From a virus, in IMG/VR virus record IMGVR_UViG_3300036772_000425, positions 138,924 through 202,923 of that record: a stretch of 64,000 nt of DNA. One strand, 5' to 3'. Within the stretch, counting starts at the first letter, position 1. Each line of letters starts with the position of its first letter. The translations under genes and the position numbers were made by a program. Under the pieces are notes generated by a model. It was not told where the DNA came from. It made no database searches and saw only the letters and a list, made by a program, of their open reading frames with translations. Shown here piece by piece: positions 1-53,762 of this stretch.

Positions 1-55
1 TGTTGTAAGCCCTACGTTCTGCCGGTTTCACCATCGCTCGCGGAACGCGGGCCGA

Positions 56-250
56 TCAGCTGCACGTCCGCGGGTCGAAGCCCAGGACGAGCGCGTCCCG
101 GTACCGTGCCAGGGTCCACCCGTGGGCCTCGACCAGTGCCTGTGCCAGGTCGATGCGTTCATCGATCTCCGTCTCGGTGGTGGGCCTGGGCTCGCTCAGC
201 AGGAGCGTCTCGACCTGCGACACCAGGACGGTGAACGGGATGACGATCAT
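56..250 (-). CDS. hypothetical small protein (64 aa)
   Basis: ORF track; starts 3 nt after stop of upstream minus gene; mixed composition. Confidence 0.4.
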   Translation of the reverse strand: MIVIPFTVLVSQVETLLLSEPRPTTETEIDERIDLAQALVEAHGWTLARYRDALVLGFDPRTCS

Positions 251-253
251 GGT

Positions 254-613
254 TCAGTACCCTCCGAACAGCATGCAGCTGATGTCGTGGGCCTCGTCGG
301 TGACATCGTGCGAGGAGATCGCGGACCACTCGAAGTCCGCCTCCTCAGCGGTACGACATGCGCTCTCGAAGTGCCCACCCACGCGGGCCTCGGTGAGCGG
401 GACGCGGAAGAAGCGCCCGCCGTCCATGTCGTACACCAGGACGGTCCCATCATGGCGCGGGTAGCTGACGATGACGCAGGCCTGCCCCTCGCACGAGAGG
501 ATGACGTTGCAGTGTTCCTGCGCGAAGGCGCGGCGCGCGCCCTCCGTCACCCTCTCGAACCAGTGGGTGTCCTTGCGCCAGTCCTGCGGGGCCGAGAATT
601 CGTTGGTTTCCAT
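254..613 (-). CDS. hypothetical protein (119 aa)
   Basis: ORF track; conserved promoter motif ends 6 nt upstream of ATG. Confidence 0.55.
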   Translation of the reverse strand: METNEFSAPQDWRKDTHWFERVTEGARRAFAQEHCNVILSCEGQACVIVSYPRHDGTVLVYDMDGGRFFRVPLTEARVGGHFESACRTAEEADFEWSAISSHDVTDEAHDISCMLFGGY

Positions 614-619
614 GGTTCC

Positions 620-649
620 AGTCTACCACGAACGCCCGGTTGATTTCAC
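620..649 (-). promoter_or_regulatory. phage promoter GTGAAAT-N17-TAGACT (leaderless)
   Basis: minus-strand reading GTGAAAT..17 nt..TAGACT then GGAACC ATG; same architecture repeated upstream of 8+ genes. Confidence 0.5.
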
Positions 650-655
650 CCCCGA

Positions 656-934
656 TCAGAAGCGCCCGAAGAACAGGTACTCCGGACCGCCCATGTTGAT
701 GCAACCGCACGGACCCTGCGGGTCGCTGCAGCGCCGGTCGAGCTGCTCCAGGAGTCCCTGGGCGAGCTGGACGCCGTCGACCGAGGGCTCACGGAGGATC
801 ATGGTGAAGCGTTCCTTGGAGCCCAGGTCCACGTGGCCCAGGTTCTCCCGGACCCGCTGCCGGGCCACCTCGAAGGCCGCGTGGGAGTTCCTGCCGGTGC
901 CACGGGTGAAGAAGCTGACGGGCTGTTTCTGCAC
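656..934 (-). CDS. hypothetical protein (about 92 aa), GTG start
   Basis: Frame of ORF 656..1141 has about 90% G/C at codon position 3. Its 5' part overlaps the upstream gene and is low-complexity, so the start was moved to a GTG preceded by GGAAGGAA (SD-like). The motif-associated ATG at 966 lies in a frame with A-rich third positions and was rejected. Confidence 0.45.
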   Translation of the reverse strand: MQKQPVSFFTRGTGRNSHAAFEVARQRVRENLGHVDLGSKERFTMILREPSVDGVQLAQGLLEQLDRRCSDPQGPCGCINMGGPEYLFFGRF

Positions 935-966
935 GGTGCGTTCCTTCCTGTTCGGGTTCGTGTCAT

Positions 967-996
967 GTCGTACCACACGCCATCCGCCCGTTTCAC
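967..996 (-). promoter_or_regulatory. phage promoter GTGAAAC-N17-TACGAC
   Basis: same motif/spacing; here followed by about 30-nt leader with SD. Confidence 0.4.
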
Positions 997-1439
997 CCCC
1001 GGAGGCGGGTCCGGTTGCCGTTCTCGTCCTGGTACTCGGTGGCGACCGCACCGAGCCCGCCCATCGGCACGCAGTGGTTCGGGTCCGCGTGGGCCACCAG
1101 CTTGGTCCTCGGCTCGCCCTCCTCCCTCGCGGCATGCACACGGCACGCGTACTTGCCGGGGGTCGACGGTCGGTTGCAGTCCTTGTGAGGGCATCCGAAC
1201 CGGCCGGTGGGCTTGGTCACGATGGCGATGGTCTGGTGTTTCAGGGCCTGCATCCGGCGCTCTTGGAGCTCTGGGTAGTCGGAACCCAGCATCACGTCCG
1301 CGTCGGAGACGGTGTGTTCCGTGAAGCCCTGGCTGTCCAGGAAGCGTTGCAACGCGATGGCCAGCGTCGTCTTCCCGGCGCCGGCTGCACCCGTGATGGT
1401 GATGGTGATCGCAGGGGCAGGTGACTTGGTAGATTCCAT
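993..1439 (-). CDS. P-loop NTPase, nucleotide-kinase-like (148 aa)
   Basis: Walker A ITITGAAGAGKTT resembles thymidylate/dNMP kinase P-loop; promoter motif and TAGGATAGGACCC directly before ATG. Confidence 0.6.
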   Translation of the reverse strand: MESTKSPAPAITITITGAAGAGKTTLAIALQRFLDSQGFTEHTVSDADVMLGSDYPELQERRMQALKHQTIAIVTKPTGRFGCPHKDCNRPSTPGKYACRVHAAREEGEPRTKLVAHADPNHCVPMGGLGAVATEYQDENGNRTRLRG

Positions 1440-1446
1440 GGGTCCT

Positions 1447-1476
1447 ATCCTAGGCCTGTTCGCCGTTGAGTTTCAC
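1447..1476 (-). promoter_or_regulatory. phage promoter GTGAAAC-N17-TAGGAT (leaderless)
   Basis: motif; 7 nt between -10 and ATG. Confidence 0.5.
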
Positions 1477-1737
1477 CAAGTAGGGCTCCAGGTCACGCCA
1501 GTAGCCCATCTTTTTCGTCTTTGCGTCGGTCCAATAGTCAGAGCTCGACCCCGTCGTGCATACGATCGATCGCATCGATCGAGGGTTAACGTAGACGTAT
1601 GAACGAACGAAACCGATGCCCTCTTGGGTGACAGCATCGAAACCGTTCCGCAGCATGATCGGGTAATGCCACTGGGTTTCGACCGGGTGCACCTTCTTGT
1701 CAGCTGCTTCGAAGGAGAGACGCTCTTCGTTGTTCAT
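1450..1737 (-). CDS. hypothetical protein (95 aa; start moved to internal Met MNNEERL)
   Basis: N-terminal 72 aa of track ORF are low-complexity and overlap upstream gene; promoter GTGAAGG-N17-TACAAC-AGGATC-ATG pinpoints internal ATG. Confidence 0.5.
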   Translation of the reverse strand: MNNEERLSFEAADKKVHPVETQWHYPIMLRNGFDAVTQEGIGFVRSYVYVNPRSMRSIVCTTGSSSDYWTDAKTKKMGYWRDLEPYLVKLNGEQA

Positions 1738-1743
1738 GATCCT

Positions 1744-1773
1744 GTTGTACCTCAGATCGTGTTCTGCCTTCAC
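1744..1773 (-). promoter_or_regulatory. phage promoter GTGAAGG-N17-TACAAC (leaderless)
   Basis: motif and spacing. Confidence 0.5.
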
Positions 1774-1798
1774 TCGCTGCTCGCGGAACGCGTGCGGA

Positions 1799-2029
1799 TC
1801 ACTCCGACACGCCCGGGATGCCGTTCCGGCCCAACGCGACGAGCCCCCACTCGTTGACCTCCCGGGTGATCCGTTCCTGGAGCTTGGTAAGATCCTCCAC
1901 GGTGCCGGTGCTCGACCGCACGTTAGGGAGCACGATGCAGTACCGGATGTCACCGTTCTCCAGGTAGCAGAACGACACGTCGAACTTGTGGCCGGCGAGC
2001 TTGTGCTTGGTGGTGGACTTCATGGCCAT
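1799..2029 (-). CDS. hypothetical protein (76 aa)
   Basis: ORF track; -10 element TAGATC abuts the ATG (true leaderless; second in-frame ATG at +6 may be the start). Confidence 0.5.
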   Translation of the reverse strand: MAMKSTTKHKLAGHKFDVSFCYLENGDIRYCIVLPNVRSSTGTVEDLTKLQERITREVNEWGLVALGRNGIPGVSE

Positions 2030-2059
2030 GATCTACCTCATTCGTCAGGGTGGGTTCAC
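2030..2059 (-). promoter_or_regulatory. phage promoter GTGAACC-N17-TAGATC (leaderless)
   Basis: motif and spacing. Confidence 0.5.
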
Positions 2060-2355
2060 CGGCGGATTCGGATGTAGGCCACGTAGATGCGTTCCCCGGG
2101 TCCGAGGAGCTCCAACGGGACGTACAGGATCCGACGGTCACCGTCGTCCGCGATGCGGGAACGCGTGTCCGCCTGCAGGGCGTTCAGGATCTGGCGCCGC
2201 ATGTGGTGCTTGAAGTGGTACCGTCCCCTGCAACGGCAGGATTCATGGTACATGCTGGAGCACCGGCGGGCGACGGCACCGGCACGGTCGGTGTAGACGT
2301 AGTCCACATCGCTGACCTGGTAGCGCTCCGGGTCGGTTGAGCTGGGGCTGCACAT
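2056..2355 (-). CDS. hypothetical protein (99 aa)
   Basis: ORF track; promoter motif 6 nt upstream. Confidence 0.5.
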   Translation of the reverse strand: MCSPSSTDPERYQVSDVDYVYTDRAGAVARRCSSMYHESCRCRGRYHFKHHMRRQILNALQADTRSRIADDGDRRILYVPLELLGPGERIYVAYIRIRR

Positions 2356-2361
2356 GCCCCC

Positions 2362-2391
2362 AGTTTACCACCGTCGCGATCCTGGTTTCAC
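2362..2391 (-). promoter_or_regulatory. phage promoter GTGAAAC-N17-TAAACT (leaderless)
   Basis: motif and spacing. Confidence 0.5.
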
Positions 2392-2454
2392 TCCCGAAAT
2401 GACGAAGGGTGCCGTTGGGCACCCTTCTCGGTCGATGATGCGGTGTCTCCCTCT

Positions 2455-2703
2455 CTACCAGAACTTGGAGACGAAGTGGACGATGACGCAGACGATGGCC
2501 ACCGAGGCGGCGAGGCTCAGCAGGGCCCAGACCGCCCATGCTGCGATGAAACCTTTGGCAAGCGACATGTTGCTCCTCTGCATCTCGTCCATCTGCTGGC
2601 GATGCTGGGTGAAATGATCGTTGAAGATTGGGTGCAGGGGCCCTGGCCCACCGGTGCGACCGTGCATGTTGGGATGGTATGCCATGATGGCCCCGGTGTT
2701 CAC
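2455..2703 (-). CDS. small membrane protein (82 aa, C-terminal TM helix)
   Basis: GTGA overlap with upstream gene stop; hydrophobic C-terminus AAWAVWALLSLAASVAIVCVIV. Confidence 0.45.
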   Translation of the reverse strand: MNTGAIMAYHPNMHGRTGGPGPLHPIFNDHFTQHRQQMDEMQRSNMSLAKGFIAAWAVWALLSLAASVAIVCVIVHFVSKFW

Positions 2704-3236
2704 CGGTCCATCGACTTCATGGCACGCTTGATGAGGGCGACGTCCTTCCGCATGTCACGCATGGTGTACGTGGTGGCGTAGAACTGCTTCAGCACCGTCT
2801 CCGGGACCTCCATGAGGTGCTCCTGGACGTGCGAGAAGTGGTGAGGGCGCTCGGTGCGGTACCTCATGGCATCGTCGAGGGTCATCCCACCGAGGTACTC
2901 CGCCGCCCGGAAGTAGCTGGGCGCCCAGGTGAGGGTGTTGTTGGTCATCTTCGCCGCGGCACGGGCGATCCGGCCGTCGGCAAGCATCCTGTCACCGATG
3001 ATCGGGTAGAGGGAGGCGATGTTGTAGCCCGTCTTCTTCGGGCGCTGCCAGCTGGACTCCACCCGCGGTTCACCGCCGGGGTCGAGCTGGACGTCCAGCC
3101 CGCACCAGAACTTCCAGTGTTCATGGGGTGCGCTGTTCTCCCACATCCCGTCCGAGAACTGCCCCTGCAGCTCATGGTCGAAGATCGCGACGGCGGGCAG
3201 GGTGGGCAGGAAGATGGTGCCGGTGTGGTTGCTCAT
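2700..3236 (-). CDS. hypothetical protein (178 aa)
   Basis: ORF track; promoter motif directly upstream. Confidence 0.55.
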   Translation of the reverse strand: MSNHTGTIFLPTLPAVAIFDHELQGQFSDGMWENSAPHEHWKFWCGLDVQLDPGGEPRVESSWQRPKKTGYNIASLYPIIGDRMLADGRIARAAAKMTNNTLTWAPSYFRAAEYLGGMTLDDAMRYRTERPHHFSHVQEHLMEVPETVLKQFYATTYTMRDMRKDVALIKRAMKSMDR

Positions 3237-3242
3237 GGTCCT

Positions 3243-3272
3243 AGTCTACCCCCGTCGCGGATCAGGTTTCAC
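3243..3272 (-). promoter_or_regulatory. phage promoter GTGAAAC-N17-TAGACT (leaderless)
   Basis: motif and spacing. Confidence 0.5.
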
Positions 3273-3279
3273 CGTGTTG

Positions 3280-3570
3280 TCAGACGCGTTGCTCGGGCCA
3301 CACGATGGGTTCCCCCAGGTCGTTCTGGATGCGCTGCAGGGCGCCCAGCAGGTAGCAGTGGACATCGTGCCCCACCGCGCTCTGCTCGCCGTACGCCTCC
3401 AGGGCGTGACGAAGGGCCAGCAGCTCGCCCTTGGTCAGCGCCATGTGCACGGTGAACGGGTAGGTGTCGGATGACCGCTTCCCGTTGACGAAGATGGGCT
3501 TGGCGGGAGGCCCAGCGACGATGGTGTGCTCGCGCAGCAGCTCTTCGGTGTCATTCTTCGTGATCTTCAT
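3280..3570 (-). CDS. hypothetical protein (about 96 aa; start at internal Met MKITKND)
   Basis: internal ATG preceded by GGAAGGGAA SD; upstream variant promoter. Confidence 0.5.
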   Translation of the reverse strand: MKITKNDTEELLREHTIVAGPPAKPIFVNGKRSSDTYPFTVHMALTKGELLALRHALEAYGEQSAVGHDVHCYLLGALQRIQNDLGEPIVWPEQRV

Positions 3571-3595
3571 GGTGCCGTTCCCTTCCGCAGGTGGT

Positions 3596-3627
3596 AGGAT
3601 ACCACCTTCCTGGGTCAAAAGGTTCAC
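3596..3627 (-). promoter_or_regulatory. variant promoter GTGAACC-N19-TATCCT
   Basis: same -35-like element, longer spacer, followed by SD-containing leader. Confidence 0.3.
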
Positions 3628-4244
3628 GTGGGGGCTTGGGTGGGCTTCCAGGGCCAACCCAGGTCCATGGACTCAGCCTTGGTGTGCCTGTCCCAGAGGA
3701 GCCAGGACCCGTCGTCCTGGCGAGCGTAGAGCTCGCCGTCGACCAACCGGAACTCAGTCCGGCAGTCCTCCGCGAGAAGCTCCAAATACTTCATGTACGC
3801 GGACTCCGACACCTTCCTCACCTCGTTCAGGTGCAGGGTGCCCAACGCTCGGGTCCGGACCCTCGGGCACGCTCCGCAGCATCCCGGGTTGGCCAGGCCC
3901 TTCCGGACATGGATGCACCCGTCCAGGAAGGCGCGCAGCACGTTGAGGTGTGGGACCGATCGACCGCCGATGCTCCAGCGGAAGCTGGGCAGGGCCCGAA
4001 ACTTCCGGACGCTGGGCATCGCACGGTCGTACAGCCTGGTGCTCTTGCACTCGTAGATGCTGAAGCGCTCGCCGGTGTGGGTGTCCTTCACCTCCCAGTG
4101 GGTGGAGACCTTGTTGTCGGACGTCGGCGGCAGGGACGGGCCGAAGGCCGAGCGCAGCTCGGCGTAGCTCGCGTCGAAGTCGCACACGTGGCCGCCCGTG
4201 CGGGGCCTGTCGCTGTCACCGCGGATGAACCTTGCCATGATCAT
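3624..4244 (-). CDS. hypothetical Cys-rich protein (206 aa), possible nuclease/zinc-binding
   Basis: ORF track; CCGAC and scattered Cys/His; promoter motif immediately upstream. Confidence 0.55.
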   Translation of the reverse strand: MIMARFIRGDSDRPRTGGHVCDFDASYAELRSAFGPSLPPTSDNKVSTHWEVKDTHTGERFSIYECKSTRLYDRAMPSVRKFRALPSFRWSIGGRSVPHLNVLRAFLDGCIHVRKGLANPGCCGACPRVRTRALGTLHLNEVRKVSESAYMKYLELLAEDCRTEFRLVDGELYARQDDGSWLLWDRHTKAESMDLGWPWKPTQAPT

Positions 4245-4250
4245 GGTACC

Positions 4251-4280
4251 AGTCTACCTCCGGCGTCGGATCCGTTTCAC
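4251..4280 (-). promoter_or_regulatory. phage promoter GTGAAAC-N17-TAGACT (leaderless)
   Basis: motif; abuts 3' end of tRNA. Confidence 0.5.
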
Positions 4281-4281
4281 G

Positions 4282-4356
4282 GTGGGCACGCTCGGGTTCG
4301 AACCGAGACACTCCCGCTTATGAGGCGGGTGCTCTGACCGGTTGAGCTACGGGCCC
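4282..4356 (-). tRNA. tRNA-Met: tRNA-Met (anticodon CAU; could be Ile2 if lysidinylated)
   Basis: minus-strand cloverleaf GGGCCCG-TA-GCTC-AACCGGTCA-GAGC-A-CCCGC-CTCATAA-GCGGG-AGTGT-CTCGG-TTCGAAC-CCGAG-CGTGCCC-A-CC; T-loop TTCGAAC; one C5-U68 acceptor mismatch. Confidence 0.75.
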
Positions 4357-4372
4357 AGAAATGCGGACCGGG

Positions 4373-4396
4373 CGGGAGGGACGAATCCCCCTCCCG
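4373..4396 (-). terminator. candidate hairpin terminator downstream of 4426..5166 gene
   Basis: inverted repeat CGGGAGGG-acgaatcc-CCCTCCCG; T-poor tail so weak. Confidence 0.3.
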
Positions 4397-4425
4397 GCCC
4401 GTTCTTCACACCACCACGGTGCCCG

Positions 4426-5166
4426 TCAGCCCGCGGCCGCGATCGGTTCGACCTCCTCTGCAGGGGCGGCATCGACCGGTTCCGCGGCCGGAGCAGCATC
4501 GCTCATCTCGAGGACGGGCGGGAGCTCGGCCTCCGCGGCGACCGCTTCCACGTCGCTGCAGTAGAAGTAGAAGCCGTCGCCCCCGCCCGGGACCGGGCGG
4601 TTCTTCTCGCCGGGCACGTTGACGTAGCACCGGATCCGGCTCACCTTGACGACGGTGCCCGTCGCACCCAGGATGTGCGGGTAGTCGCCGCCGCGCACCT
4701 TCACCGTCTGGCCCACCACGAGCTCGCCGCCGGCGTCCAGGGCAAGCTTCGTCGACTGTGCCCGGCAGAAGTGGATGACGTGGTCCGCGAAGTTGGCCAG
4801 GTCCGGGCCCTCCAGGTTCGTCGTCGCCTCGTTGAAGAGCAGCTGTGCCCGGTCCGACATGGGCCGCAGCTTCGCCGCAGCAGCCTCCACCTTCTTCATG
4901 TGGGCAGGCGCTGCCGCCGCCGCACGGGCCTCGGCCGCGTCCTTGCGCTCCTGCTCCTTGGCCGCCTTGCGCTCGTTGCGCTCCTGCTCGATCTTTTCCT
5001 TCGCCGCGGCGCGCTCGGCCTCGGTGAGGCGGGGCTTCGCAGGCTCGGTCGACGCAGCGGAGGCGCCGGCGGTGCCCGCCTTCTTCGCGGCCGCACGCTC
5101 CTTTGCGGCGTTGATGGCCTTGTCGATGTCGGCGGTCGAGGCGGTGACGTTCTTCGTGTCGCTCAT
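4426..5166 (-). CDS. Lys/Ala/Glu-rich (H1-like) protein with C-terminal KOW/Tudor-like barrel (247 aa)
   Basis: start at internal Met MSDTKNV preceded by AAGAAGGA SD; AAKKA/KEKIEQER low-complexity coiled region; C-term GQTVKVRGG...GATGTVVKV. Confidence 0.55.
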   Translation of the reverse strand: MSDTKNVTASTADIDKAINAAKERAAAKKAGTAGASAASTEPAKPRLTEAERAAAKEKIEQERNERKAAKEQERKDAAEARAAAAAPAHMKKVEAAAAKLRPMSDRAQLLFNEATTNLEGPDLANFADHVIHFCRAQSTKLALDAGGELVVGQTVKVRGGDYPHILGATGTVVKVSRIRCYVNVPGEKNRPVPGGGDGFYFYCSDVEAVAAEAELPPVLEMSDAAPAAEPVDAAPAEEVEPIAAAG

Positions 5167-5399
5167 GGTGATTTCGTCCTTCTTTGCCGGCCGGTCCATC
5201 GGCCGTGCTTGATGGGTCCAATCTAACATGGGGGCAGGCATGACTACACAGTCGTGCATGGAAAACCTTCAACGCTGAAGGGCCTCGGGCGATCGACGCG
5301 CGATGTAAGGATCGCGTCTGCACCCTCGCGAGGGGGAACGTCGTCGCATCTGTCGGTCTGGCGCCGATCGGCAGAAGTTCCATGCTGCCTGCTTCTACG

Positions 5400-5428
5400 G
5401 TGAAGCGCAGGTCCAGCTGTGGTAGAAC
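5400..5428 (+). promoter_or_regulatory. candidate promoter GTGAAGC-N16-TAGAAC for plus-strand module
   Basis: motif resembling minus-strand family, about 65 nt upstream of 5495 start with SD GAAAGAAGAG. Confidence 0.3.
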
Positions 5429-5494
5429 TGGACTCAAGGAAACTGACCGGCAAGCAAGCCGGCCAAGTTATCCACCCTGAAAGAAGAGTACACC

Positions 5495-5788
5495 ATGTCG
5501 ATGCGTACCAAGTCCGCTCCCCGCCGCATCTACGTCCGTGCCTCCAAGTCCCTCGTCTGCTTCGGCGGCCTGTACTTCGGCCCCTCCGAGAAGAACGGCA
5601 GCGAGCTCGACGTCGCCACCGAGGTCACCATCGAGACGCTCGCACCCGTCGGCGGTCGCAAGCGGATCAAGGTCACCCAGGTCATCGGCGACAAACGCTC
5701 CTCGGAGAACTGGGTCGAGAAGCACCTCAACTTCGCCACCCGCAAGGCGGCGACCGAGTCGGACGCGGAGCAGGAAGCCGCGCAGTAA
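5495..5788 (+). CDS. hypothetical protein (97 aa)
   Basis: ORF track; SD-like GAAAGAAGAG upstream. Confidence 0.5.
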   Translation: MSMRTKSAPRRIYVRASKSLVCFGGLYFGPSEKNGSELDVATEVTIETLAPVGGRKRIKVTQVIGDKRSSENWVEKHLNFATRKAATESDAEQEAAQ

Positions 5789-5869
5789 TCACCGGTACGC
5801 ACCGAGCGCCTTTGGGCCTGGCAGGGAACCTCCTTGCTGGGCCTGAGGCCGTGGAAGGGGCAGGCGACA

Positions 5870-6088
5870 ATGCGACCCTACGGGCTCCGGATCATCGAGC
5901 ACCCCGACGTGGCGGACCTCCAGGAGATGGGGGCGAAGACCAGTGCCGGCGGGCGCAACTACCTCCGTTCGTCGGCCCAGAAGCGGGTGACCAGGCGGCG
6001 CTGGAAGCGCCTGGCGCGAGGGCAAGGGAAGGCAGAGACGGCCGAACAGGCCGAGGAAGGTACGTATGAGGCGGTTCAAGAACCCTGA
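5870..6088 (+). CDS. hypothetical basic protein (72 aa)
   Basis: internal Met of ORF 5834..6088; Arg/Lys-rich. Confidence 0.35.
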   Translation: MRPYGLRIIEHPDVADLQEMGAKTSAGGRNYLRSSAQKRVTRRRWKRLARGQGKAETAEQAEEGTYEAVQEP

Positions 6089-6190
6089 GACGAAGCGCTG
6101 GCGTGGCCGCAGCTACAAGCGAGGCGGGCAGCGCGTTCGCATGCTCCGTGACAGCTGCACCAGGGCGACCGACGCCCGGCAGGTGGACCG

Positions 6191-6382
6191 ATGAGGGCCG
6201 GCGGGTGCCTGGGGGTGCTCGCCGCGGTGCAGTTCCTGCTGCTGCTGGTCGCGGGACTCGCCGCGGTGGGTGGGCAGTCGATCGGGTGGGGCTGGATCCT
6301 GTCGCCCGTCCTGGTCCTGGGCGGCATCAGCGTGGCCTTCTGGGCGCTGTTCCTGACGGCCTGGGCGAAGTTCGGGAAGTGA
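6191..6382 (+). CDS. small membrane protein (63 aa, 2 TM)
   Basis: ATGA overlap with preceding short ORF; two hydrophobic helices. Confidence 0.45.
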   Translation: MRAGGCLGVLAAVQFLLLLVAGLAAVGGQSIGWGWILSPVLVLGGISVAFWALFLTAWAKFGK

Positions 6383-6556
6383 ACCACGGGCGGGGATCGT
6401 AAGGGTCCCCGCCCTTCTTCACGCGTTCTTCTCCACCCCTGGGCGCCCAGCTGCGCCGGCGGGGAACCACGCAGCCTGCGCGGTCGTCGGGATCAGAACG
6501 GCGTCGCAGCACGCGTGGCGGTGCAGGCACCGAAGCACCGGTGGTAGACTGGCAGC

Positions 6557-6748
6557 ATGCTGACTGACAAGGACAGGGTACGGTTGGAGTCGGAGATCGT
6601 GGACCTCAACGCCACCCGCATCTGGGTGCGCGGGCTGAAGGAGAAGAAGGAGCAGGAGAAGAGCTCGAGCCTGGCGGTCCGCCTGTATTACGCGGAGCGC
6701 GCCCTGGAGCTCGCCATCCGGGACCTGAACTGCGTCCTGAACGGGTGA
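6557..6748 (+). CDS. hypothetical protein (63 aa)
   Basis: ORF track. Confidence 0.4.
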   Translation: MLTDKDRVRLESEIVDLNATRIWVRGLKEKKEQEKSSSLAVRLYYAERALELAIRDLNCVLNG

Positions 6749-6808
6749 ACTGCACTGATCGATCCTGGTAGAACAGGATCACCAACCGGCAACCAGGAGG
6801 AACTTCCA

Positions 6809-7603
6809 ATGAGCGGGATGCAGCTGAACGTGTCACGTGGTTTCGCGACCGGCACCATGATCAACACCATCAACGTGCCCGAGGCCCTGCGCGTCAAGCA
6901 CAGCAGCGGGATCGGGTGGTTGGACGATGCGCTGGGCGGGGAGGGCGGCTTCACCCCGACCACCACCATGATGCTGACGGGCGGCCCGGGCGCCGGTAAG
7001 AGCACCCTGCTGCGCCAGATGGCCGACACCATGACGGAGAAGGGCCACCTGGTGCTGTACAACACCGGTGAGGAGAGCCTGTTCCAGGCCAAGATGTCCT
7101 GCGAGCGCCTGGCCCTGAAGAACGACTTCCCGGTGGGTGAGGAGACCATGCTGCCCCGCCTGCTGGAGTTCATGGACAAGGTGAAGGCCGACCCGAAGCT
7201 GCGGGGCCGCCAGCTGGTGCTGCTGCAGGACTCCCTGCAGACCCTGGACGACGGCAAGTACGTGGACTCCGTGGGGCGCAGCCGGGGCACCACCAGCAAG
7301 ACGCCCACCTACTGCGCGGAGATGCTGGTGGACTGGATGCAGAAGAACTTCGGCATCTGCGTCTTCATCGGCCAGTGCACCAAGGGCGGCGAGTTCGCAG
7401 GGCAGAACACCATCAAGCACGCCATCGACACCCATGCACACATGTATTATGATGAGAAAGAGAAATCGGACACCTACGGCAACCTCCTCTTCGAGGTGCA
7501 GAAGAACCGGTGGGGCTGCAACGGGAAGACCTTCATCCTCGGCCTCACGAAAACGGGTATCGAGGAACGTGGAAGCTTCAAGAAGGCGGGTGCGGTAGAG
7601 TAA
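6809..7603 (+). CDS. RecA-superfamily ATPase (RadA/Sms- or DnaB-C-terminal-like)
   Basis: GIGWLDDALGGEGGF...TGGPGAGKSTLLRQMA Walker A and RadA-like context; AGGAGG SD 8 nt upstream. Confidence 0.8.
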   Translation: MSGMQLNVSRGFATGTMINTINVPEALRVKHSSGIGWLDDALGGEGGFTPTTTMMLTGGPGAGKSTLLRQMADTMTEKGHLVLYNTGEESLFQAKMSCERLALKNDFPVGEETMLPRLLEFMDKVKADPKLRGRQLVLLQDSLQTLDDGKYVDSVGRSRGTTSKTPTYCAEMLVDWMQKNFGICVFIGQCTKGGEFAGQNTIKHAIDTHAHMYYDEKEKSDTYGNLLFEVQKNRWGCNGKTFILGLTKTGIEERGSFKKAGAVE

Positions 7604-7726
7604 AGAAGCAGCATTCCTCACGCGTTCCGGGCTCGCCCCCTTCGTTGGGTGCGGGCCTTGGGCCGTCGGAAGCGCCAAGATGCATCGGCTGGTGGTGCAC
7701 CATCTACAACTGAGGGCGGTGACAGC

Positions 7727-7915
7727 ATGGAGCTGAAGGGCATCAAGGGTGAGGAACTCACTGTCGTCATCACGCGTGACGAGCTGAGCATGCTGCGCTT
7801 CGCGGCGGCGATGTGGTCCAGCAAGACCTCGTCTGAGACCGCCGCCGAGCGCCTTGGGAAGCTCTATGACCAGATGTCGAGGATCCTGGAGGAAAAGGAC
7901 AATGTCAAGGATTGA
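7727..7915 (+). CDS. hypothetical protein (62 aa)
   Basis: internal Met with GAGGG SD. Confidence 0.4.
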   Translation: MELKGIKGEELTVVITRDELSMLRFAAAMWSSKTSSETAAERLGKLYDQMSRILEEKDNVKD

Positions 7916-8111
7916 CGTCAAGCAGTTCACCAACCTCGTCGTCCAGCGTAGCACCGGCAGCGCGATCGACGAGGTGCAGATCACCATGCCTGCCGAGACC
8001 GCACGCATCTTCCAGCGTCGGTTGTTCATCACGTTGGCATCAGCAAAACCCGAGGATCGGAACGAAGGCCTGGTCGAGGTCATGCAGGCCCTGGACGATG
8101 TGCTCGGATGA
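7902..8111 (+). CDS. hypothetical protein (69 aa)
   Basis: ATG overlapping previous stop. Confidence 0.4.
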   Translation: MSRIDVKQFTNLVVQRSTGSAIDEVQITMPAETARIFQRRLFITLASAKPEDRNEGLVEVMQALDDVLG

Positions 8112-8121
8112 GGAGGGAGCC

Positions 8122-8340
8122 ATGAACGAGCCCAAGGTCATCGAGCGCGGAGCGCTCCACTTCAGGCGGGTGGACAGCATCGGCCACGATCGACGGTACC
8201 AGGGCGTCGTCGTGGAATGCTGGCTCGGACCCCCCGACGACCGGGAGTCGGAGCACGTCTTCACGGTCGACCAGACGTACGTCCCAGACATCATCGCCGG
8301 CCTGCGGGCCCTCGAGCCCAGGAAGATGAAACGACCATGA
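8122..8340 (+). CDS. hypothetical protein (72 aa)
   Basis: GGAGG SD; internal Met of ORF 7912..8340 (5' part low complexity). Confidence 0.45.
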   Translation: MNEPKVIERGALHFRRVDSIGHDRRYQGVVVECWLGPPDDRESEHVFTVDQTYVPDIIAGLRALEPRKMKRP

Positions 8341-8579
8341 ACACGCGTGTCCACAACCCGCACTCCCGGGCCCCCCGGCTCCACGTCAGCCTCACCGTCG
8401 AGGAGGTCCAGCAGCTGAAGGCTGCGTTGGACCACCTGGGCTCGCTTCCCGGCCCCCGGGGTGACTTCCGGGGCTGCTTCACCGGCAACATGCAGTCAGC
8501 CTTCTTCGACCTGCTCGCTGGGTTGAACCACGCGTTGGTGACCCCGCTGCCCAAGGGGATCAAGGGGGTGGCTCCGTGA
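8337..8579 (+). CDS. hypothetical protein (80 aa)
   Basis: ATGA overlap. Confidence 0.45.
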   Translation: MNTRVHNPHSRAPRLHVSLTVEEVQQLKAALDHLGSLPGPRGDFRGCFTGNMQSAFFDLLAGLNHALVTPLPKGIKGVAP

Positions 8580-8803
8580 GCGCCCGGAACGGAGGGCCCT
8601 CCCTCACGCAGGTCCGCCTGAAGCTGATGGAGCTGGACCACGAGCTCAACGCGCTCGTGGATGCGATGGCCCCGATGGTGGGGCCCGAGGAGGAACCCGG
8701 CATCGATCCGATCGGCACGGACCCGATCAGGACGGCGCAGTTCTGGTTGGAGGGTGCCGCCAACAGGACGGCCTGGGCCCTCGATGCGCTCGACAAGGGG
8801 TGA
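8576..8803 (+). CDS. hypothetical protein (75 aa)
   Basis: GTGA overlap. Confidence 0.45.
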   Translation: MSARNGGPSLTQVRLKLMELDHELNALVDAMAPMVGPEEEPGIDPIGTDPIRTAQFWLEGAANRTAWALDALDKG

Positions 8804-8829
8804 AACCACGCGTGCCGGTGTGGTACCCT
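8800..8829 (+). promoter_or_regulatory. phage promoter GTGAAAC-N17-TACCCT
   Basis: same motif on plus strand, followed by leader with CAGGAAGGTGG SD before ATG 8871. Confidence 0.45.
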
Positions 8830-8870
8830 GGAACCGGAAGAGGCAACGTCCCAACAGGAAGGTGGCTCGC

Positions 8871-9455
8871 ATGCATGCGAAGCGGTTGAAGGACGGGACC
8901 GGGAAGGTCCACGTCGGGGTGATGATGACGCTGGAGGAGGCGAAGGAGGCGGCCAGCACCCTGGGCCCGTTCACGCAGGGCAGCGGGCTGCTGCACCGGA
9001 TGGCGAGCGCCATCGCCTCCGAGCTGGAGGACCACGAGCTGTGCGCGCTGGCACCCGCCCCCACGCCGGCGACCTTCCATCGGGAACGGGTGATCACGCC
9101 CCTGCACCAGGACCTGCCGCCCATCCACGTACCGTCGATGCCGGCGAAGGCGACCCCGCAGCCCGTGGCGACCACCGAGTGGGTGGTCAGGGTGTGGCGC
9201 ACCGCGGTGGGCGGCCGCCGCGAACCGCACCACAGCATCTCCCGGCCCTTCACCACCCTGGGCGCGGCCCATGACTTCTTCGAGCGGACCCAGAACGTGC
9301 ACCGGACGAAGGCGGCACGGGGTGAGGCACCCGGCTACGACGTGGTGCTGGGCCGCCGGGACCTGCGGGGGGACACGCGTGGGAGGGAGACCGGGTGGGA
9401 GGAGCTGAAGGTTGAGAGCGTTGGGATCACCTCGTACGCGGGGCAGGAGGAGTAG
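8871..9455 (+). CDS. hypothetical protein (194 aa)
   Basis: internal Met of ORF 8661..9455; promoter and SD upstream. Confidence 0.5.
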   Translation: MHAKRLKDGTGKVHVGVMMTLEEAKEAASTLGPFTQGSGLLHRMASAIASELEDHELCALAPAPTPATFHRERVITPLHQDLPPIHVPSMPAKATPQPVATTEWVVRVWRTAVGGRREPHHSISRPFTTLGAAHDFFERTQNVHRTKAARGEAPGYDVVLGRRDLRGDTRGRETGWEELKVESVGITSYAGQEE

Positions 9456-9458
9456 AGC

Positions 9459-9800
9459 ATGGAACTGACCCTCAAACAGGTGGCACGGTTGCGGGGCCTG
9501 CAGGAACGGGTGACCGCGATCGATGCTGGTCTCGGCGTGTCGCTCCCATTCCCGGAGTACCAGCTGCCCACCGACCGCGCCAGGCACGCGTTGCTGCGGG
9601 GCCTCCGGCTGCTGCTGGTGAAGGACAGGGACCTGGAACGACCGCTCGTCTTCCCGAACGGGGAGGGCGGCTACACGGTGGAATGGCGCGCCGGAGCCAC
9701 CGGGCCCGACCTCTACGTGGACCGCCGGGGCACCTGGTCCAGCTGGGACGACCCGGACACCGAGCTGGCGCTGGACCCGACCGGGAAGCGGGTCAACTGA
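9459..9800 (+). CDS. hypothetical protein (113 aa)
   Basis: ORF track. Confidence 0.5.
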   Translation: MELTLKQVARLRGLQERVTAIDAGLGVSLPFPEYQLPTDRARHALLRGLRLLLVKDRDLERPLVFPNGEGGYTVEWRAGATGPDLYVDRRGTWSSWDDPDTELALDPTGKRVN

Positions 9801-10234
9801 TGGACGTGCTCACGCAGCGCTGCATCGCCTCCTTCCTGGGCGGTGTCATCGGAGCCGTCGCGATGGAAGCATGGAACCGGTACCGCGACCGTCCCAGGCC
9901 TGCACCGAGCGCAGCGCCCGCCCCGCAGCACCCGTACCGGACCGCAGCGGAGGATCCGGAGGCGGCGCCCTCCACCGACTGGAACTGCACCAACTGCGGG
10001 CAGGTGCACCGATGGTACCCACCCGGGTGCTCAGAATTCCCGGCACGGACAGATCCTGTCGATGCAGCACCGATCGTCCCGTCGGTCCACAGCGCGGCCG
10101 CCCTGAACGAGCTGGTGAAGCATGCCCGACGGGCGGTGACCACGCGTGACGAGGTCCTGGCCGCTGCGGACGAGGATCGCATCCCGGTCGGGTGCATATG
10201 TTCGGACTGCGCGCCCTGGGACCACACCGGTTGA
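9800..10234 (+). CDS. Cys-rich zinc-ribbon-like protein (144 aa)
   Basis: TGATG overlap; CTNCG...C and CICSDC motifs. Confidence 0.5.
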   Translation: MDVLTQRCIASFLGGVIGAVAMEAWNRYRDRPRPAPSAAPAPQHPYRTAAEDPEAAPSTDWNCTNCGQVHRWYPPGCSEFPARTDPVDAAPIVPSVHSAAALNELVKHARRAVTTRDEVLAAADEDRIPVGCICSDCAPWDHTG

Positions 10235-10537
10235 TCGACCACGATCCGTGGCGGTGGTCTGCCGCGGGCACGCGTTTCCGTCCGACCCTGCTTCGCGCGC
10301 GATACGACTAGCGTGCCCGTGCCCCTGCGGGTCGCGTTATCGACACGCCCCCGTGTGGACCCGCGACGGGCGGGATCGTGTATCGGGCGCGAGGACACCG
10401 ATCGATCGTCACGATCTTTCGGAGGTCCGTGGGCCCAACCGCACGCCTTTTCCGCCGCAAAATGTAGTCCATCAGCCACCGACATCCTCACAGCGCACAT
10501 CCGTGTACTTGGGAACGCGGGACGGTACCATGCAAGG

Positions 10538-10759
10538 ATGAAGAAGCAGCTGACCGTGTACCGACAGTGCACCGCCGCCGAGCTGGAGGGGCTGACCCGG
10601 GCGGGCTGGAAGATGTCGAAGAAGCACTTCGCACCGGAGGGCGGCTACCTGCTGTTCCAACGCTGCTCCCCGCCCGAGAAGGTGCAGAAGGACAGCGAGA
10701 AGGACTGCTGCAGCAGTCCACCGGTCGGTGCTGGTGCACGTCGGACAAGTGCACCCTGA
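10538..10759 (+). CDS. hypothetical protein (73 aa), possibly 5' part of a frameshifted gene
   Basis: internal Met MKKQLTV after 300-nt noncoding gap; continues in another frame (see 10567..11034). Confidence 0.4.
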   Translation: MKKQLTVYRQCTAAELEGLTRAGWKMSKKHFAPEGGYLLFQRCSPPEKVQKDSEKDCCSSPPVGAGARRTSAP

Positions 10760-11034
10760 AGATCCCCGCTGACATCCCGCAGCCGCAGCAGAAGGGCTTC
10801 ATCGCGGCGGTGAGGGAGGCGATGGAGGGACAGCACCCGAGCGCGGAGGTCGAGGCTGCGATGGTACGGCTGCGCTCCTGGCTCGACGTGCACCCAGGAT
10901 CCTCGCTCAGCGCCTGCGCCGGGCAGCTGGGACTCGACTACCGGTTGGTGCTGGTGTACGCGGCCGTTCTGTTCGACCAGGGCCTGATCCGCCGGACTGG
11001 GATCGGCAAAGGATCCAGGTGGTACGCGGTCTGA
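10567..11034 (+). CDS. winged-helix DNA-binding-like protein (3' portion credible; 5' limit uncertain)
   Basis: C-terminal GQLGLDYRLVLVYAAVLFDQGLIRRTGIGKGSRWY resembles wHTH; 5' half overlaps 10538..10759 in another frame. Confidence 0.4.
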   Translation: MHRRRAGGADPGGLEDVEEALRTGGRLPAVPTLLPAREGAEGQREGLLQQSTGRCWCTSDKCTLKIPADIPQPQQKGFIAAVREAMEGQHPSAEVEAAMVRLRSWLDVHPGSSLSACAGQLGLDYRLVLVYAAVLFDQGLIRRTGIGKGSRWYAV

Positions 11035-11128
11035 GGGCCCAGAAGCAGCACAGATCGTCAGGGTGTTGGACGGGATGGAGGCTGCGCGGGGTCTGACAGA
11101 TTTCAACTACGATCTGCGACGTCTGGTG

Positions 11129-11217
11129 CCCTCCCCACCTCCATCCTCACCTTCGCCCACCGCAGCAGTTCTACCCCTCCACCGCCGCCCACCCGGGCCT
11201 TCCCGCTGGCCACCTCC
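11129..11217 (+). repeat. pyrimidine-rich tract with 4x CCTCC immediately upstream of first array gene
   Basis: about 90 nt almost purine-free on plus strand: ccctccccacctccatcctcacc...ccacctcc ATG. Confidence 0.5.
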
Positions 11218-11610
11218 ATGGAACGATCGTGCATCACAGACCAGGACGTACCCTCACCGCAGGCGCTCGTGGCGGACGCGCGGGCGAGGGAGGGGCTGCC
11301 GGGCGACCTGGTCAGCATCTCCTACGGGGCCGACCTTGTCCGCATCCGGAAACGGGGCCACGATTGGACCTTCGACACCTGGCACGAGCTCACCAAGGTC
11401 CTGCGCCCCGCGCACTACCTGGTCGTCTCCGTCTGCGGGGAGCGGCTGGGGTTGCTAGGGAACGACAATGCCTTCCTGCCCAACGCCCGGTCCGACAGCA
11501 TGTTCTTCCGGCGTTGGCCGGGAGATCCGCTGGTGAGGGCACGGGCCGCCGATGTCAGGGTGGTCCTGGTCTCCCGCACCCAGGAGGTCACCACGCATGG
11601 TCCCGGTTGA
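11218..11610 (+). CDS. PGD-motif small beta-barrel (KOW/Tudor-like) paralog 1 (start may be internal)
   Basis: LPGDLVSISYG...YLVVSVCGERLGLLGNDNAF family motifs. Confidence 0.5.
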   Translation: MERSCITDQDVPSPQALVADARAREGLPGDLVSISYGADLVRIRKRGHDWTFDTWHELTKVLRPAHYLVVSVCGERLGLLGNDNAFLPNARSDSMFFRRWPGDPLVRARAADVRVVLVSRTQEVTTHGPG

Positions 11611-11938
11611 CAGAGGCCCGCAGCTCCGGCCCGGGGACATCATCACCTCCATCCTGTACTGCGGCATGCCCCAGCGCCTGGTCCCATCACCCAGTGGGCC
11701 CAACGGCACCTTGTGGCGCGAGCTCGCCGACTGCTGGATCACCTCCGCTCCCGTCTACCTCGTGGTCTCCTCCACCGGTGGCCCGCAGCCCCTCTACAAC
11801 CTGCAGGGCACCACCCTCCTGCCGCGCGTCGACCTGTGCATGTTGTGGCACTGGAAGGGATCGACGAGCGTGATGATCGCCGCGCGGGAGCTGTCCTTCA
11901 CGGTCACCCGCCCGCCGGGGGAGCACCGTGGTCCATAG
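11597..11938 (+). CDS. PGD-motif small beta-barrel paralog 2
   Basis: RPGDIITS...YLVVSSTGG; overlaps upstream stop. Confidence 0.5.
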   Translation: MVPVDRGPQLRPGDIITSILYCGMPQRLVPSPSGPNGTLWRELADCWITSAPVYLVVSSTGGPQPLYNLQGTTLLPRVDLCMLWHWKGSTSVMIAARELSFTVTRPPGEHRGP

Positions 11939-12332: not shown

Positions 12333-12399
12333 CCCAGTTCTCCCGTCTCTCTACCCGTCCAGGAAGGATCGTGTGACCGTGACCGAACCCGAGACCACC

Positions 12400-17410: not shown

Positions 17411-17715
17411 TGCTGTTCTGCACGTCGCAGGCTGCGAACCGCTGCTCTTCTACGATCTGGTCACGCCCCGACGTGGCACCGGGCGACCTCTTCCGGTTCT
17501 GGTCAGTGGATTCCGAACCGGTCACCCTGACGCTGTGCCAGATCCCGAACATCGACTCCCACTGGTACTTCTCGTACGGGAACCCATCGCATCGGACCAT
17601 GCTGATCCACATCAGCACGAACCGGCTGGTCTTCCTGCAGGGTTGCAGGCTCGTCGACCTCAGCTCCGACGATGTCATTGGTGGGGCCGACGTTCGGATG
17701 CTGCCCATTGGGTGA
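17410..17715 (+). CDS. PGD-motif small beta-barrel paralog
   Basis: VAPGDLFRFWSV...TMLIHISTNRLVFLQGCRLVDLSSDDV. Confidence 0.5.
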   Translation: MLFCTSQAANRCSSTIWSRPDVAPGDLFRFWSVDSEPVTLTLCQIPNIDSHWYFSYGNPSHRTMLIHISTNRLVFLQGCRLVDLSSDDVIGGADVRMLPIG

Positions 17716-17741
17716 AACCATCCGAGCGCCGGTGGTAAGAT
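17712..17741 (+). promoter_or_regulatory. phage promoter GTGAAAC-N17-TAAGAT
   Basis: motif; ATG of AT-hook gene 8 nt downstream of -10. Confidence 0.5.
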
Positions 17742-23707: not shown

Positions 23708-24021
23708 CGCAGCTGGGCTTCGGCGACGTGGTGATGTGGCGCTGGAACTGGGAGAACTTCGTCCTGTGGGAGAGGGTGACCGTCACGGACCCGGCGGCCG
23801 TGCCGACGTACGAACGCGGTCCGATCAGGTTCCACGGTGCGCACCTGAAGGTCAGCACCGCATCGGCCCTCATCGTGTGCAGGGTGGTGACGCTGGACAG
23901 CGACGCTCCGTACGTCAAGGCGAACCCGCTGGCGTTCGTCATGGTGCTGGGCCACGGTGTCGCTGGGTGGTGCAGATACGACGATCTGGTGCCGGTGAAA
24001 AACTGCAGCACCATGTGTTAA
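23692..24021 (+). CDS. GD-motif small beta-barrel paralog
   Basis: QLGFGDVVMWRW... Confidence 0.45.
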   Translation: MRSEVAQLGFGDVVMWRWNWENFVLWERVTVTDPAAVPTYERGPIRFHGAHLKVSTASALIVCRVVTLDSDAPYVKANPLAFVMVLGHGVAGWCRYDDLVPVKNCSTMC

Positions 24022-24030
24022 CCTCCACCC

Positions 24031-42729: not shown

Positions 42730-42733
<4 letters not shown>
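42344..42733 (-). CDS. membrane protein (129 aa)
   Basis: ATGA overlap with GroEL stop; CWILLLLSVVLGSVLRLPVLGILTISV TM segments. Confidence 0.5.
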
Positions 42734-44385
<1,652 letters not shown>

Positions 44386-52821: not shown

Positions 52822-52822
52822 G

Positions 52823-53732: not shown

Positions 53733-53762
53733 AGGGTATCATATGATTGATGGAGGTTTCAC
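53733..53762 (-). promoter_or_regulatory. phage promoter GTGAAAC-N17-TACCCT upstream of Fpg/Nei gene
   Basis: motif on minus strand in divergent intergenic region. Confidence 0.4.

Follow-up and report, generated by a model that had tools for sequence, protein, structure and literature searches.

An array of GTGAA/TAnnnT promoter-like elements with predicted leaderless transcripts in an uncultured jumbo phage

In the terminal-redundancy module of SPO1, the immediate-early genes of T4 and the pre-early region of T5, small ORFans near a genome end are transcribed by the unmodified host polymerase from near-identical strong promoters, and the messenger RNAs (mRNAs) carry leaders with Shine-Dalgarno (SD) sites, often together with terminators. 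The T4 early promoters, with GTTTAC as their -35 box, furthermore set a precedent for a phage-specific consensus. We here describe a cluster of this kind in a viral sequence of 64,000 nucleotides (nt), i.e. positions 138,924 to 202,923 of the IMG/VR record IMGVR_UViG_3300036772_000425, the whole of which is referred to as the window. At its start, small minus-strand genes are preceded by a bipartite element, GTGAAAC-N17-TAGACT in its typical form, which ends just ahead of the start codon. Clustered small ORFans with numerous near-identical promoters are thus shared with SPO1, T4 and T5; unlike in those phages, the space between genes is here taken up by the promoter, and the transcripts are predicted to have no leader.

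Among phages, leaderless transcription from a shared -10-type motif has its nearest precedent in phiYS40 of Thermus thermophilus, which is likewise a large phage. Sevostyanova et al. reportedly found in 2007 that many phiYS40 transcripts have their 5' end on or beside the start codon and share a -10-type motif used by the host polymerase. That motif reportedly lacks a -35 box and serves the middle and late classes of a low-GC phage whose host is known, and to our knowledge no dense one-promoter-per-gene arrays have been described for it. Short conserved repeats by many gene starts also occur in mycobacteriophages, where the start-associated sequences (SAS) of Cluster K are contiguous 13-mers including a ribosome-binding site, and the stoperators of Cluster A are 13-bp repressor sites; the present element differs from both in being a bipartite -35/-10 structure at a fixed distance from the ATG. 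No description of it was found in the literature searched on the motif, on such arrays, or on leaderless jumbo phages or actinophages.

The element also resembles the leaderless primary-sigma promoters of Actinobacteria (Streptomyces lividans, S. coelicolor, Corynebacterium glutamicum and mycobacteria) and Deinococcus-Thermus. In S. lividans the -35 box is nTGACn and 17% of the transcripts are leaderless (PMC8079986), the sigma-A sites of C. glutamicum read TTGNCA/TANANT with 33% of the transcripts leaderless (PMC3890552), and in Deinococcus-Thermus a -10 element adjoining the open reading frame (ORF) is a common route to leaderless mRNA (PMC12340547). As in these bacteria, TAnnnT (TANANT) is situated about 6 nt before a start codon that doubles as the transcription start (in the phage by prediction), the -35 box lies 16-19 nt further upstream, and there are extended -10 G residues but no SD sites. 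The -35 box, in contrast, is weak or degenerate in Actinobacteria and Deinococcus-Thermus (nTGACn, ttgnca) and strongly conserved as GTGAAA in the phage, which alone shows a conserved G at -13, one promoter per gene in arrays of 20-30, and constrained first codons. Our preferred explanation, to which we assign a probability of roughly 0.7, is that the elements are extended -10 promoters of the sigma-70 family, read by the host polymerase and giving rise to leaderless mRNAs from an early host-takeover array.

Enrichment, extent and conservation of the motif

With chance levels taken from dinucleotide shuffles, a strict search pattern (GTGAAAY-N16-18-TANNNT) gave 8 matches in the 64-kb window, against a shuffle mean of 0.12 and a maximum of 1. 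A relaxed pattern (GTGAA-N19-TA-N4) gave 20 matches, 10 of which are found on the minus strand at positions 2-4280, all with a 17-nt spacer, while the antisense strand of 1-4280 has none. On the minus strand of 1-4800, the bipartite element precedes almost every small ORF. A sequence-only reading of the window had claimed at least eight such minus-strand genes in the first 4.3 kb and a 17-nt spacer, and had named enrichment at gene starts over shuffled sequence as a check. The claims are borne out and the check speaks in their favor, and a fixed distance to the start codons comes in addition. Among the further copies that it listed, those at 8800-8829, 17712-17741 and 53733-53762 are exact, while that at 33294-33323 is promoter-like and of equal geometry but has TTGCAAA rather than GTGAA as its -35 box. 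A copy implied near 3627, with a 19-nt spacer, a 25-nt leader and an SD site, is doubtful.

The array continues outside the window. The Logan contig SRR11832861_189551 (61.8 kb) is identical to window positions 1-13236 and extends 18.6 kb past the window start, about 10 kb of which was read. Among the genes on the contig, which had been called independently of the motif, approximately 30 of 39 consecutive small ones (41-206 amino acids, aa) have the motif directly upstream of the ATG. The genes span from window position 4244 to about 6.5 kb past the window start, with one more at 9 kb, and some 20 further copies are located in the approximately 7 kb past the window start over which the array continues on the identical contig (L001/L002). 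On L002, 29 copies were found on the coding strand and none on the opposite strand. What the sequence-only reading had before it was only about a third of the array.

Relatives were identified by scanning IMG/VR with the exact pattern and then with a more general one. Together with the window phage, the five contigs listed in Table 1 make up six phage contigs with 110 motif copies. Common to all contigs is GTGAA-N19-TA-N3-T-N6-ATG with C at -1, while the variable positions differ phage by phage. A weight matrix built from the 79 sites of the five other contigs recovered 15 sites in the window, 8 of them array copies, against 0.5 in shuffles. Two relatives share proteins with the window phage, namely an ATPase (63-74% identity) and a 257-aa protein (42%). 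The orthologous ATPase gene is preceded on four contigs by GTG(A/T)AA-N17-TAnnnT followed by an AGGAG SD site, with the flanks diverged. As a promoter grammar, the motif is precise and can be searched for by machine in a large group of uncultured jumbo phages. The exact motif had no match in bacterial genome collections, nor had the ATPase any relative there, and a blastn search with the promoter consensus gave no match.

It could be argued that tandem gene duplication, or chance in GC-rich DNA, has made the copies similar. Some copies do derive from one another, as indicated by spacer sub-families, one with GTGAATCCGGGATCCCATC in three copies and another with GTGAAACCTCGGATGCGCGGA, twice in identical and once in diverged form. 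However, the downstream proteins show no mutual similarity (no pair in an all-against-all blastp at E < 1e-3), shuffles contain 0.1-0.5 copies where 8-15 are observed, and the skeleton persists in phages with unrelated early genes, which leaves this explanation with almost no probability.

In related phages, motif-type leaderless promoters were also seen directly before a gene with a PEPCK_ATP domain (L123 1611-3161, plus strand) and an ATP-dependent DNA ligase gene (L015 2-1279, minus strand), so the class is not confined to small ORFans.

Promoter anatomy, gene starts and the predicted leaderless design

A frequency matrix was made from 30 sites of the window phage, with T-12 and A-11 preset by the search pattern. 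The consensus of these sites reads g-GTGAA-a-CC, n7, C-(a/g), n3, G-n-GG, TAgAcT, (a/g)GgACC, ATG, GAa-ACC-AAC. In the -10 hexamer, A occurs at -9 in 24/30 sites and T at -7 in 23/30, with C in the remainder, and the same T/A pattern is found in the 79 sites of the five other contigs. G residues at -16, -14 and -13 (24-26 of the 30 sites each) form an extended -10, and 25/30 discriminators carry G at -5 and 24/30 carry C at -1. The upstream box is situated at -36 to -30. Taken as a -35 hexamer, GTGAAA matches TTGACA at 4/6 positions and has an 18-bp spacer in 30/30 sites, its G at position 1 being atypical; the base following GTGAA is A in 16 sites, T in 7, C in 4 and G in 3. At other window starts with TAnnnT 5-8 nt upstream, the -35 slot holds GTGAAA, TTGAAA (26174), TTGCAA (33294), GTGCAA (26667), GTGCAG (6557) or CTGAAC (GroEL gene). 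The TTGAAAA at 26174-26203 indicates that T is tolerated at position 1 of the box, and the variants together define nTG(A/C)AA, which would place the box in the TTGACA family. A generic sigma-70 promoter scan did not call the array sites.

Short conserved repeats directly upstream of many starts might alternatively be regulator-binding sites or translation-linked start-associated sequences rather than promoters, and the partly conserved spacer, with C at -21 in 26/30 copies of the window phage and a nearly invariant segment cgcagatc in 3300005529_000001, would allow for additional regulator binding. However, conservation falls on what characterizes a sigma-70 promoter, i.e. T-12, A-11 and T-7 together with an extended -10, as well as a hexamer 17-18 bp upstream. 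With its two parts and variable spacer, the element is neither a contiguous operator nor a palindrome. No SD-like core is found at a workable distance from the ATG, and the fixed distance of 6 nt fits start-site selection rather than ribosome binding. We consequently hold this alternative to be very improbable.

GATC-containing sub-motifs recur in the spacers, e.g. at window positions 4268-4273 (GGATCC) and 3260-3265, and as part of cgcagatc in L061/L063. Their role might be that of a further binding site, or of a target for methylation.

Other promoter and repeat classes were compared and rejected. For the extracytoplasmic function (ECF, group 4) sigma factors, the base after GTGAA is variable, an invariant AAC core (GGAAC or TGAAAC) is missing and the -10 is TAnAnT instead of CGTC/CGTA. 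T4-type middle promoters have a MotA box near -30 in place of the -35 box, about 12 bp from the -10, to be compared with an upstream box at -36 to -30, where a -35 box canonically lies, and a 17-18 bp spacer here. An archaeal B recognition element (BRE) with an A/T-rich TATA box near -27 does not agree with the G/C-rich and variable positions -29 to -24, nor with the bacterial-type GroEL, bL12 and, in relatives, sigma of the phage. In the SigB/F type (GTTT...GGGTAT) the spacing is off, the base at -15 being variable in the phage, and for Sigma-32 the -10 does not fit. The Bacteroidetes type (TTTG/TAnnTTTG) would require TTTG, which is absent, and the leadered genes of the phage use SD sites. 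Finally, the Cluster K SAS is a contiguous 13-mer with SD, as opposed to a bipartite element with a variable 17-nt spacer and no workable SD.

The distance from the -10 end to the ATG was given as 0-8 nt in the sequence-only reading. It is instead 6 nt in 20 of the 30 copies, 5 nt in three and 7 nt in four, and exactly 6 nt in 96 of the 110 copies on the six phage contigs, with C at -1 and A at +1. In three cases of apparently 0 nt, an ATG occupies the discriminator slot. Two of these (2030-2059 and 2-31) have a second in-frame ATG 6 nt further on, which for 2030-2059 is likely to be the true start (2023), while the third (967-996) belongs to a leadered gene, which starts with GTG and has GGAAGG as its SD site. 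Mapping of S. lividans promoters has placed TAnnnT at an average of 6.3 nt from the start site, and 97% of the leaderless starts are purines (PMC8079986). Together with the 6-nt distance, this makes the A of the ATG the predicted +1, and by this analogy the array mRNAs are predicted to be truly leaderless with a 5'-AUG. With 6 nt between them, the -10 and the ATG are too close together to accommodate an SD site. The earlier proposal of near-leaderless transcripts is hence supported as to the leaderless design, with the modification that the geometry predicts a fully leaderless 5'-AUG and that some copies are leadered with SD sites. Among the latter are the plus-strand copies at 5400, 6745 and 8800, with leaders of about 30-65 nt and SD sites such as AGGAGG and GGAAGG; SD sites in leadered genes of the window are of the GGAGG type.

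Motif-linked gene starts that were called without the motif are all ATG, except for one miscalled and one leadered gene. The motif can furthermore be used to correct gene starts, and by its geometry a number of automatic calls in the window are off by 6-36 nt. Since the ATG at 2667 is situated 6 nt past a -10, the gene called at 2455-2703 with a GTG start should begin at 2667. The gene called at 1799-2029 is placed at the ATG 2029 instead of 2023, and the call for the gene running off the window start (copy 2-31) also begins upstream of the predicted ATG. All these calls lie too far upstream.

The beginnings of the coding sequences are constrained as well. Codons 2-4 of array genes strongly favor GAA/GAC, ACC and AAC, yielding M-E/D-T-N/T, and unrelated array proteins open with ATG-GAA/GAC-ACC-AAC-ACC (METNT, MDTNT), e.g. 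at window positions 613, 1439 and 2023 and in L002 10256-17000. A and C are abundant and G and T scarce in these 5' ends, whose predicted structure is weak. For the 110 motif-linked genes on the six contigs, the first 36 nt have a mean folding energy of -4.2 kcal/mol, compared to -7.5 for nt 25-60 of the same genes (Wilcoxon p = 2e-13). Within the window phage, the predicted values are -4.1 kcal/mol for motif-linked and -7.0 for other genes (p = 1e-5). The content of A at +4 to +21 is 33%, versus 17.5% deeper in the genes. Such an open 5' end suits ribosome loading on a terminal AUG; alternatively, it could serve promoter escape.

The intergenic gap is fully occupied by the promoter. In 12 of 29 copies the upstream stop codon is even found inside the next promoter, as the TGA of GTGAA (9/29) or the TAG of the -10 (3/29). 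A simple scan identified no minus-strand terminators inside the array. Two hairpins without strong T-tracts occur ahead of the copies at 2391 and 4280, the former being AAGGGTGCC-CAAC-GGCACCCTT at about 2410-2431. In gaps packed like this, neither an SD site nor a terminator fits.

Pfam searches of the array proteins returned no family except a weak P-loop match in the product of gene 993-1439, and a set of ten early-region and other window proteins gave, besides this match, just lysozyme and exonuclease domains. A set of non-paralogous proteins without Pfam family fits a host-takeover function, and the motif would thereby mark the probable host-takeover genes of the phage.

The polymerase that may read the array

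The positions corresponding to sigma contacts, the likeness to the published primary-sigma consensus of bacteria rich in leaderless genes and the ORFan architecture make the holoenzyme of the host primary sigma the likeliest reader, and 'early' the likeliest timing. Enrichment, strand, distance, conservation and the sigma-70-type anatomy all support the interpretation first given to the motif. According to this host-sigma explanation, each small gene in the dense array would have its own promoter, composed of a -35 box (G/T)TGAAA, an 18-bp spacer, an extended -10 GnGG-TAgAcT and a 6-nt G-rich discriminator ending in C, with transcription starting at the A of the ATG. Most likely, the promoters would be read by the host primary-sigma holoenzyme immediately after infection. 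The mRNAs would lack both 5' leader and SD site, and host ribosomes would load directly on the 5'-terminal AUG, presumably helped by the A/C-rich, weakly structured first 20-30 nt. The ORFan array beside a divergent control region would then, most likely, be the early host-takeover module of a jumbo phage.

A number of observations weigh against this explanation. The G residues at position 1 of the -35 box and at -13 are more conserved than in any primary-sigma consensus compared. These G positions are kept in array contigs of 52-67% GC, and in scattered copies in sigma-carrying contigs down to 46% GC; since such a spread in GC may reflect different hosts, a phage-borne specificity factor could be responsible. 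Related phages also encode a sigma-70-like protein of their own. The placement of +1 at the A of the ATG is purely geometric, and the 'early' timing is assigned by analogy with other large phages. Furthermore, the similarities of lysozymes and endolysins give conflicting hints on the host envelope, as the GH24 lysozyme domain in the window has its closest matches in phages of Gram-negative hosts, and a GH25 enzyme from a relative has them in Firmicutes phages.

A possible but doubtful alternative is accordingly that real leaderless promoters are read by a phage-directed holoenzyme, either through a phage sigma (possibly with a GTGAA-reading protein) or through an appropriation like that by AsiA/MotA in T4, in which case the array would represent a middle class. 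The array-bearing relative 3300035696_000017 encodes a sigma with Pfam regions 2 and 3, homologs at 67-77% identity are found on four other motif-bearing contigs, and there are at least 772 homologs, on contigs of up to 369 kb. The sigma residues aligned with Escherichia coli T440 and E458 differ according to our reading of the alignment, and the retention of the GTGAA and GG-TA features over the above range of GC contents is a further point in favor. In 5/5 copies examined, regions 2 and 3 are intact and the protein stops at ...YPITEEEAR.VM.GKGLT*, ahead of the recognition helix of region 4.2. There is no known way for such a sigma to read a -35 hexamer, and yet the -35 is the best-conserved part of the motif, at canonical spacing. 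The co-occurrence of the motif with a conserved phage sigma lacking region 4.2 raises a mechanistic question.

Other evidence turns back towards the host enzyme. ORFans with one promoter each are typical of early regions transcribed by host polymerase, and the -35 variants TTGAAA and TTGCAA occupy equivalent sites. The sigma was not found in 74 kb of this phage, at least 150 kb of whose genome lie outside that DNA, and neither a sigma nor an RNA polymerase gene had a Pfam match among the larger window proteins tested or in the Pfam data for L001-L003. On L123, a motif-type leaderless promoter precedes the sigma gene by 2.6 kb on the same strand. Should the sigma gene be transcribed from it, as the same-strand genes in between suggest, the motif must first be read by something else, and this arrangement fits reading by the host enzyme before any phage sigma exists.

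The sigma-70-like protein itself measures 262-314 aa and was seen at L015 7832-8692 (minus strand), with homologs in L009, L101, L082, L058 and L123.

A further extension of the phage-directed scenario, which we judge unlikely, envisages a widespread, entirely uncultured clade of jumbo phages, with contigs of up to about 370 kb and at least 772 members of the sigma family, that has a grammar of its own (GTGAA-N19-GG-TAnnnT-N6-ATG). A phage-made holoenzyme would here consist of the helix-less sigma and a GTGAA-reading protein, the leaderless AUG and the A/C-rich tag would channel translation to phage messages, and a phage homolog of ribosomal protein bL12 might help translation. If true, this would amount to a new system of transcription and translation takeover, rather than a variant of host-type early promoters.

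Provided that the transcripts are leaderless, the host should translate 5'-AUG mRNAs efficiently, which would reduce the number of candidate hosts. With over 100 natural variants of a single promoter and 5'-coding layout, the arrays could also be used to study the influence of the discriminator and the first codons on leaderless initiation, and they are a potential source of compact expression parts for high-GC bacteria.

Individual copies and genomic context

The copies in the window, other features of the array and the related contigs are listed in Table 1. The copy at 5400-5428 marks the point of divergent transcription. In the transfer RNA (tRNA) gene at the array head, a C-U mismatch interrupts the acceptor stem, and of the 3' CCA no more than CC is encoded; no known RNA families besides tRNA were found in the searched DNA.

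Table 1. Coordinates of promoter copies and associated features in the window, and contigs bearing related arrays.
Feature	Position	Strand	Gene or remark
tRNA-Met, CAT anticodon	4281..4356	-	Embedded at array head; 3' end abuts GTGAAAC of first array promoter
Promoter GTGAAAC-N17-TAGACT	4251..4280	-	ATG 4244, 6 nt downstream; gene 3624-4244, 206 aa; abuts tRNA-Met gene
Promoter GTGAAAC-N17-TAGACT	3243..3272	-	ATG 3236, 6 nt downstream; gene 2700-3236, 178 aa
Promoter GTGAACA-N17-TACCAT	2674..2703	-	ATG 2667, 6 nt downstream; TGA of GTGAA is stop of gene 2700-3236
Promoter GTGAAAC-N17-TAAACT	2362..2391	-	ATG 2355, 6 nt downstream; gene 2056-2355
Promoter GTGAACC-N17-TAGATC	2030..2059	-	Discriminator slot ATGGCC; second ATG 2023, 6 nt downstream; TGA of GTGAA is stop of gene 2056-2355
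Promoter GTGAAGG-N17-TACAAC	1744..1773	-	ATG 1737, 6 nt downstream; gene 1450-1737
Promoter GTGAAAC-N17-TAGGAT	1447..1476	-	ATG 1439, 7 nt downstream; gene 993-1439, P-loop protein; TAG of -10 is stop of gene 1450-1737
Promoter GTGAAAC-N17-TACGAC, leadered	967..996	-	Leader of about 32 nt, SD GGAAGG, GTG start 934; gene 656-934; TGA of GTGAA is stop of gene 993-1439
Promoter GTGAAAT-N17-TAGACT	620..649	-	ATG 613, 6 nt downstream; gene 254-613, begins METNE
Promoter GTGAAAC-N17-TACAAC	2..31	-	Gene begins M-T-METNTNQ, past window start
Promoter GTGAAGC-N16-TAGAAC, divergent	5400..5428	+	Leader of about 60 nt before gene 5495-5788
Promoter GTGAACT-N17-TAGAAC, leadered	6745..6774	+	SD AGGAGG; before KaiC/RadA-like ATPase gene 6809-7603
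Promoter GTGAAAC-N17-TACCCT, leadered	8800..8829	+	SD GGAAGG; before gene 8871-9455
Promoter GTGAAAC-N17-TAAGAT	17712..17741	+	8 nt before ATG 17750; gene 17750-18553 with AT-hook KRGRGRP
Promoter GTGAAAA-N17-TAACCT	23995..24024	+	6 nt before ATG 24031
Promoter variant TTGAAAA-N17-TAGGAT	26174..26203	+	6 nt before ATG 26210
Promoter variant TTGCAAA-N17-TACGAT	33294..33323	+	8 nt before ATG 33332; just past hairpin downstream of MVP-like gene
Promoter GTGAAAC-N17-TACCCT	53733..53762	-	18 nt before ATG of Fpg/Nei-like gene 52823-53653
Embedded stop codons	2700-2702, 2056-2058, 993-995, 1450-1452	-	Further cases on L002
Contig 3300023179_000218			41 kb, 67% GC; 21 copies; GTGAAAA...TAAGGT aagacc ATG
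Contig 3300005529_000001			369 kb, 64% GC; 20 copies; GTGAAAG..cgcagatc..TAGAGT
Contig 3300035696_000017			114 kb, 65% GC; 16 copies; GTGAAAG..gatc..GGTAGAnT
Contig 3300037010_002844			309 kb, 60% GC; 10 copies; GTGAAyCTTCAAC...TAGAAT
Contig 3300014208_000036			89 kb, 52% GC; 12 copies; GTGAAyCTTC...TATAAC tggatc ATG

The window has a GC content of 64%, and from 43.7 kb on it lies on another contig of that run, SRR11832861_66505, which measures 168.7 kb. Two contigs of 61.8 and 168.7 kb imply a genome of at least about 230 kb, and thus a jumbo phage. Proteins encoded in the window include a major vault protein (MVP)-like protein, GroEL, an ADP-ribosylglycohydrolase, an Fpg/Nei-like glycosylase, a protein with a GH24 lysozyme domain and a 5'-3' exonuclease. 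Searches for isolate phages by megablast of 12 kb gave no match, and queries with the MVP-like protein, GroEL, the lysozyme domain and the ATPase identified no closely related isolate phage, the ATPase matching only bacterial RadA contaminants. The flap endonuclease is closest, although weakly, to FenA of Mycobacterium smegmatis, and no WhiB-type motif, looked for as an actinophage marker, was found.

The MVP-like protein (window 30620-33235, plus strand, 871 aa) has the shoulder and repeat domains of the major vault protein and similarity to SPFH/Band-7, and its phage matches are only the huge metagenomic phages LR756500-3 (462-735 kb), at approximately 40% identity. GroEL (window 42730-44385, minus strand, 551 aa) shows about 47% identity to its best database matches, which are bacterial-type GroELs, and is with 44-48% identity about equally distant from all matches listed. 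Its gene has a promoter variant of the leaderless type, CTGAAC-N17-TAGTAT-N6-ATG.

A divergent bL12 homolog consisting of the C-terminal domain only (E = 5e-9 to L7/L12 of Thermotoga maritima) is encoded about 9 kb past the window start (L002 19325-19786, plus strand). On L002, its gene is preceded by a motif copy, and the protein may bear on the translation of leaderless mRNAs. Lastly, two patches of low GC (about 55%, compared to 60-64% around them), at window positions 52111-52863 (minus strand) and 57114-57887 (plus strand), coincide with NUMOD3-containing genes. These are probably homing endonucleases, which suggests that the patches are mobile insertions.

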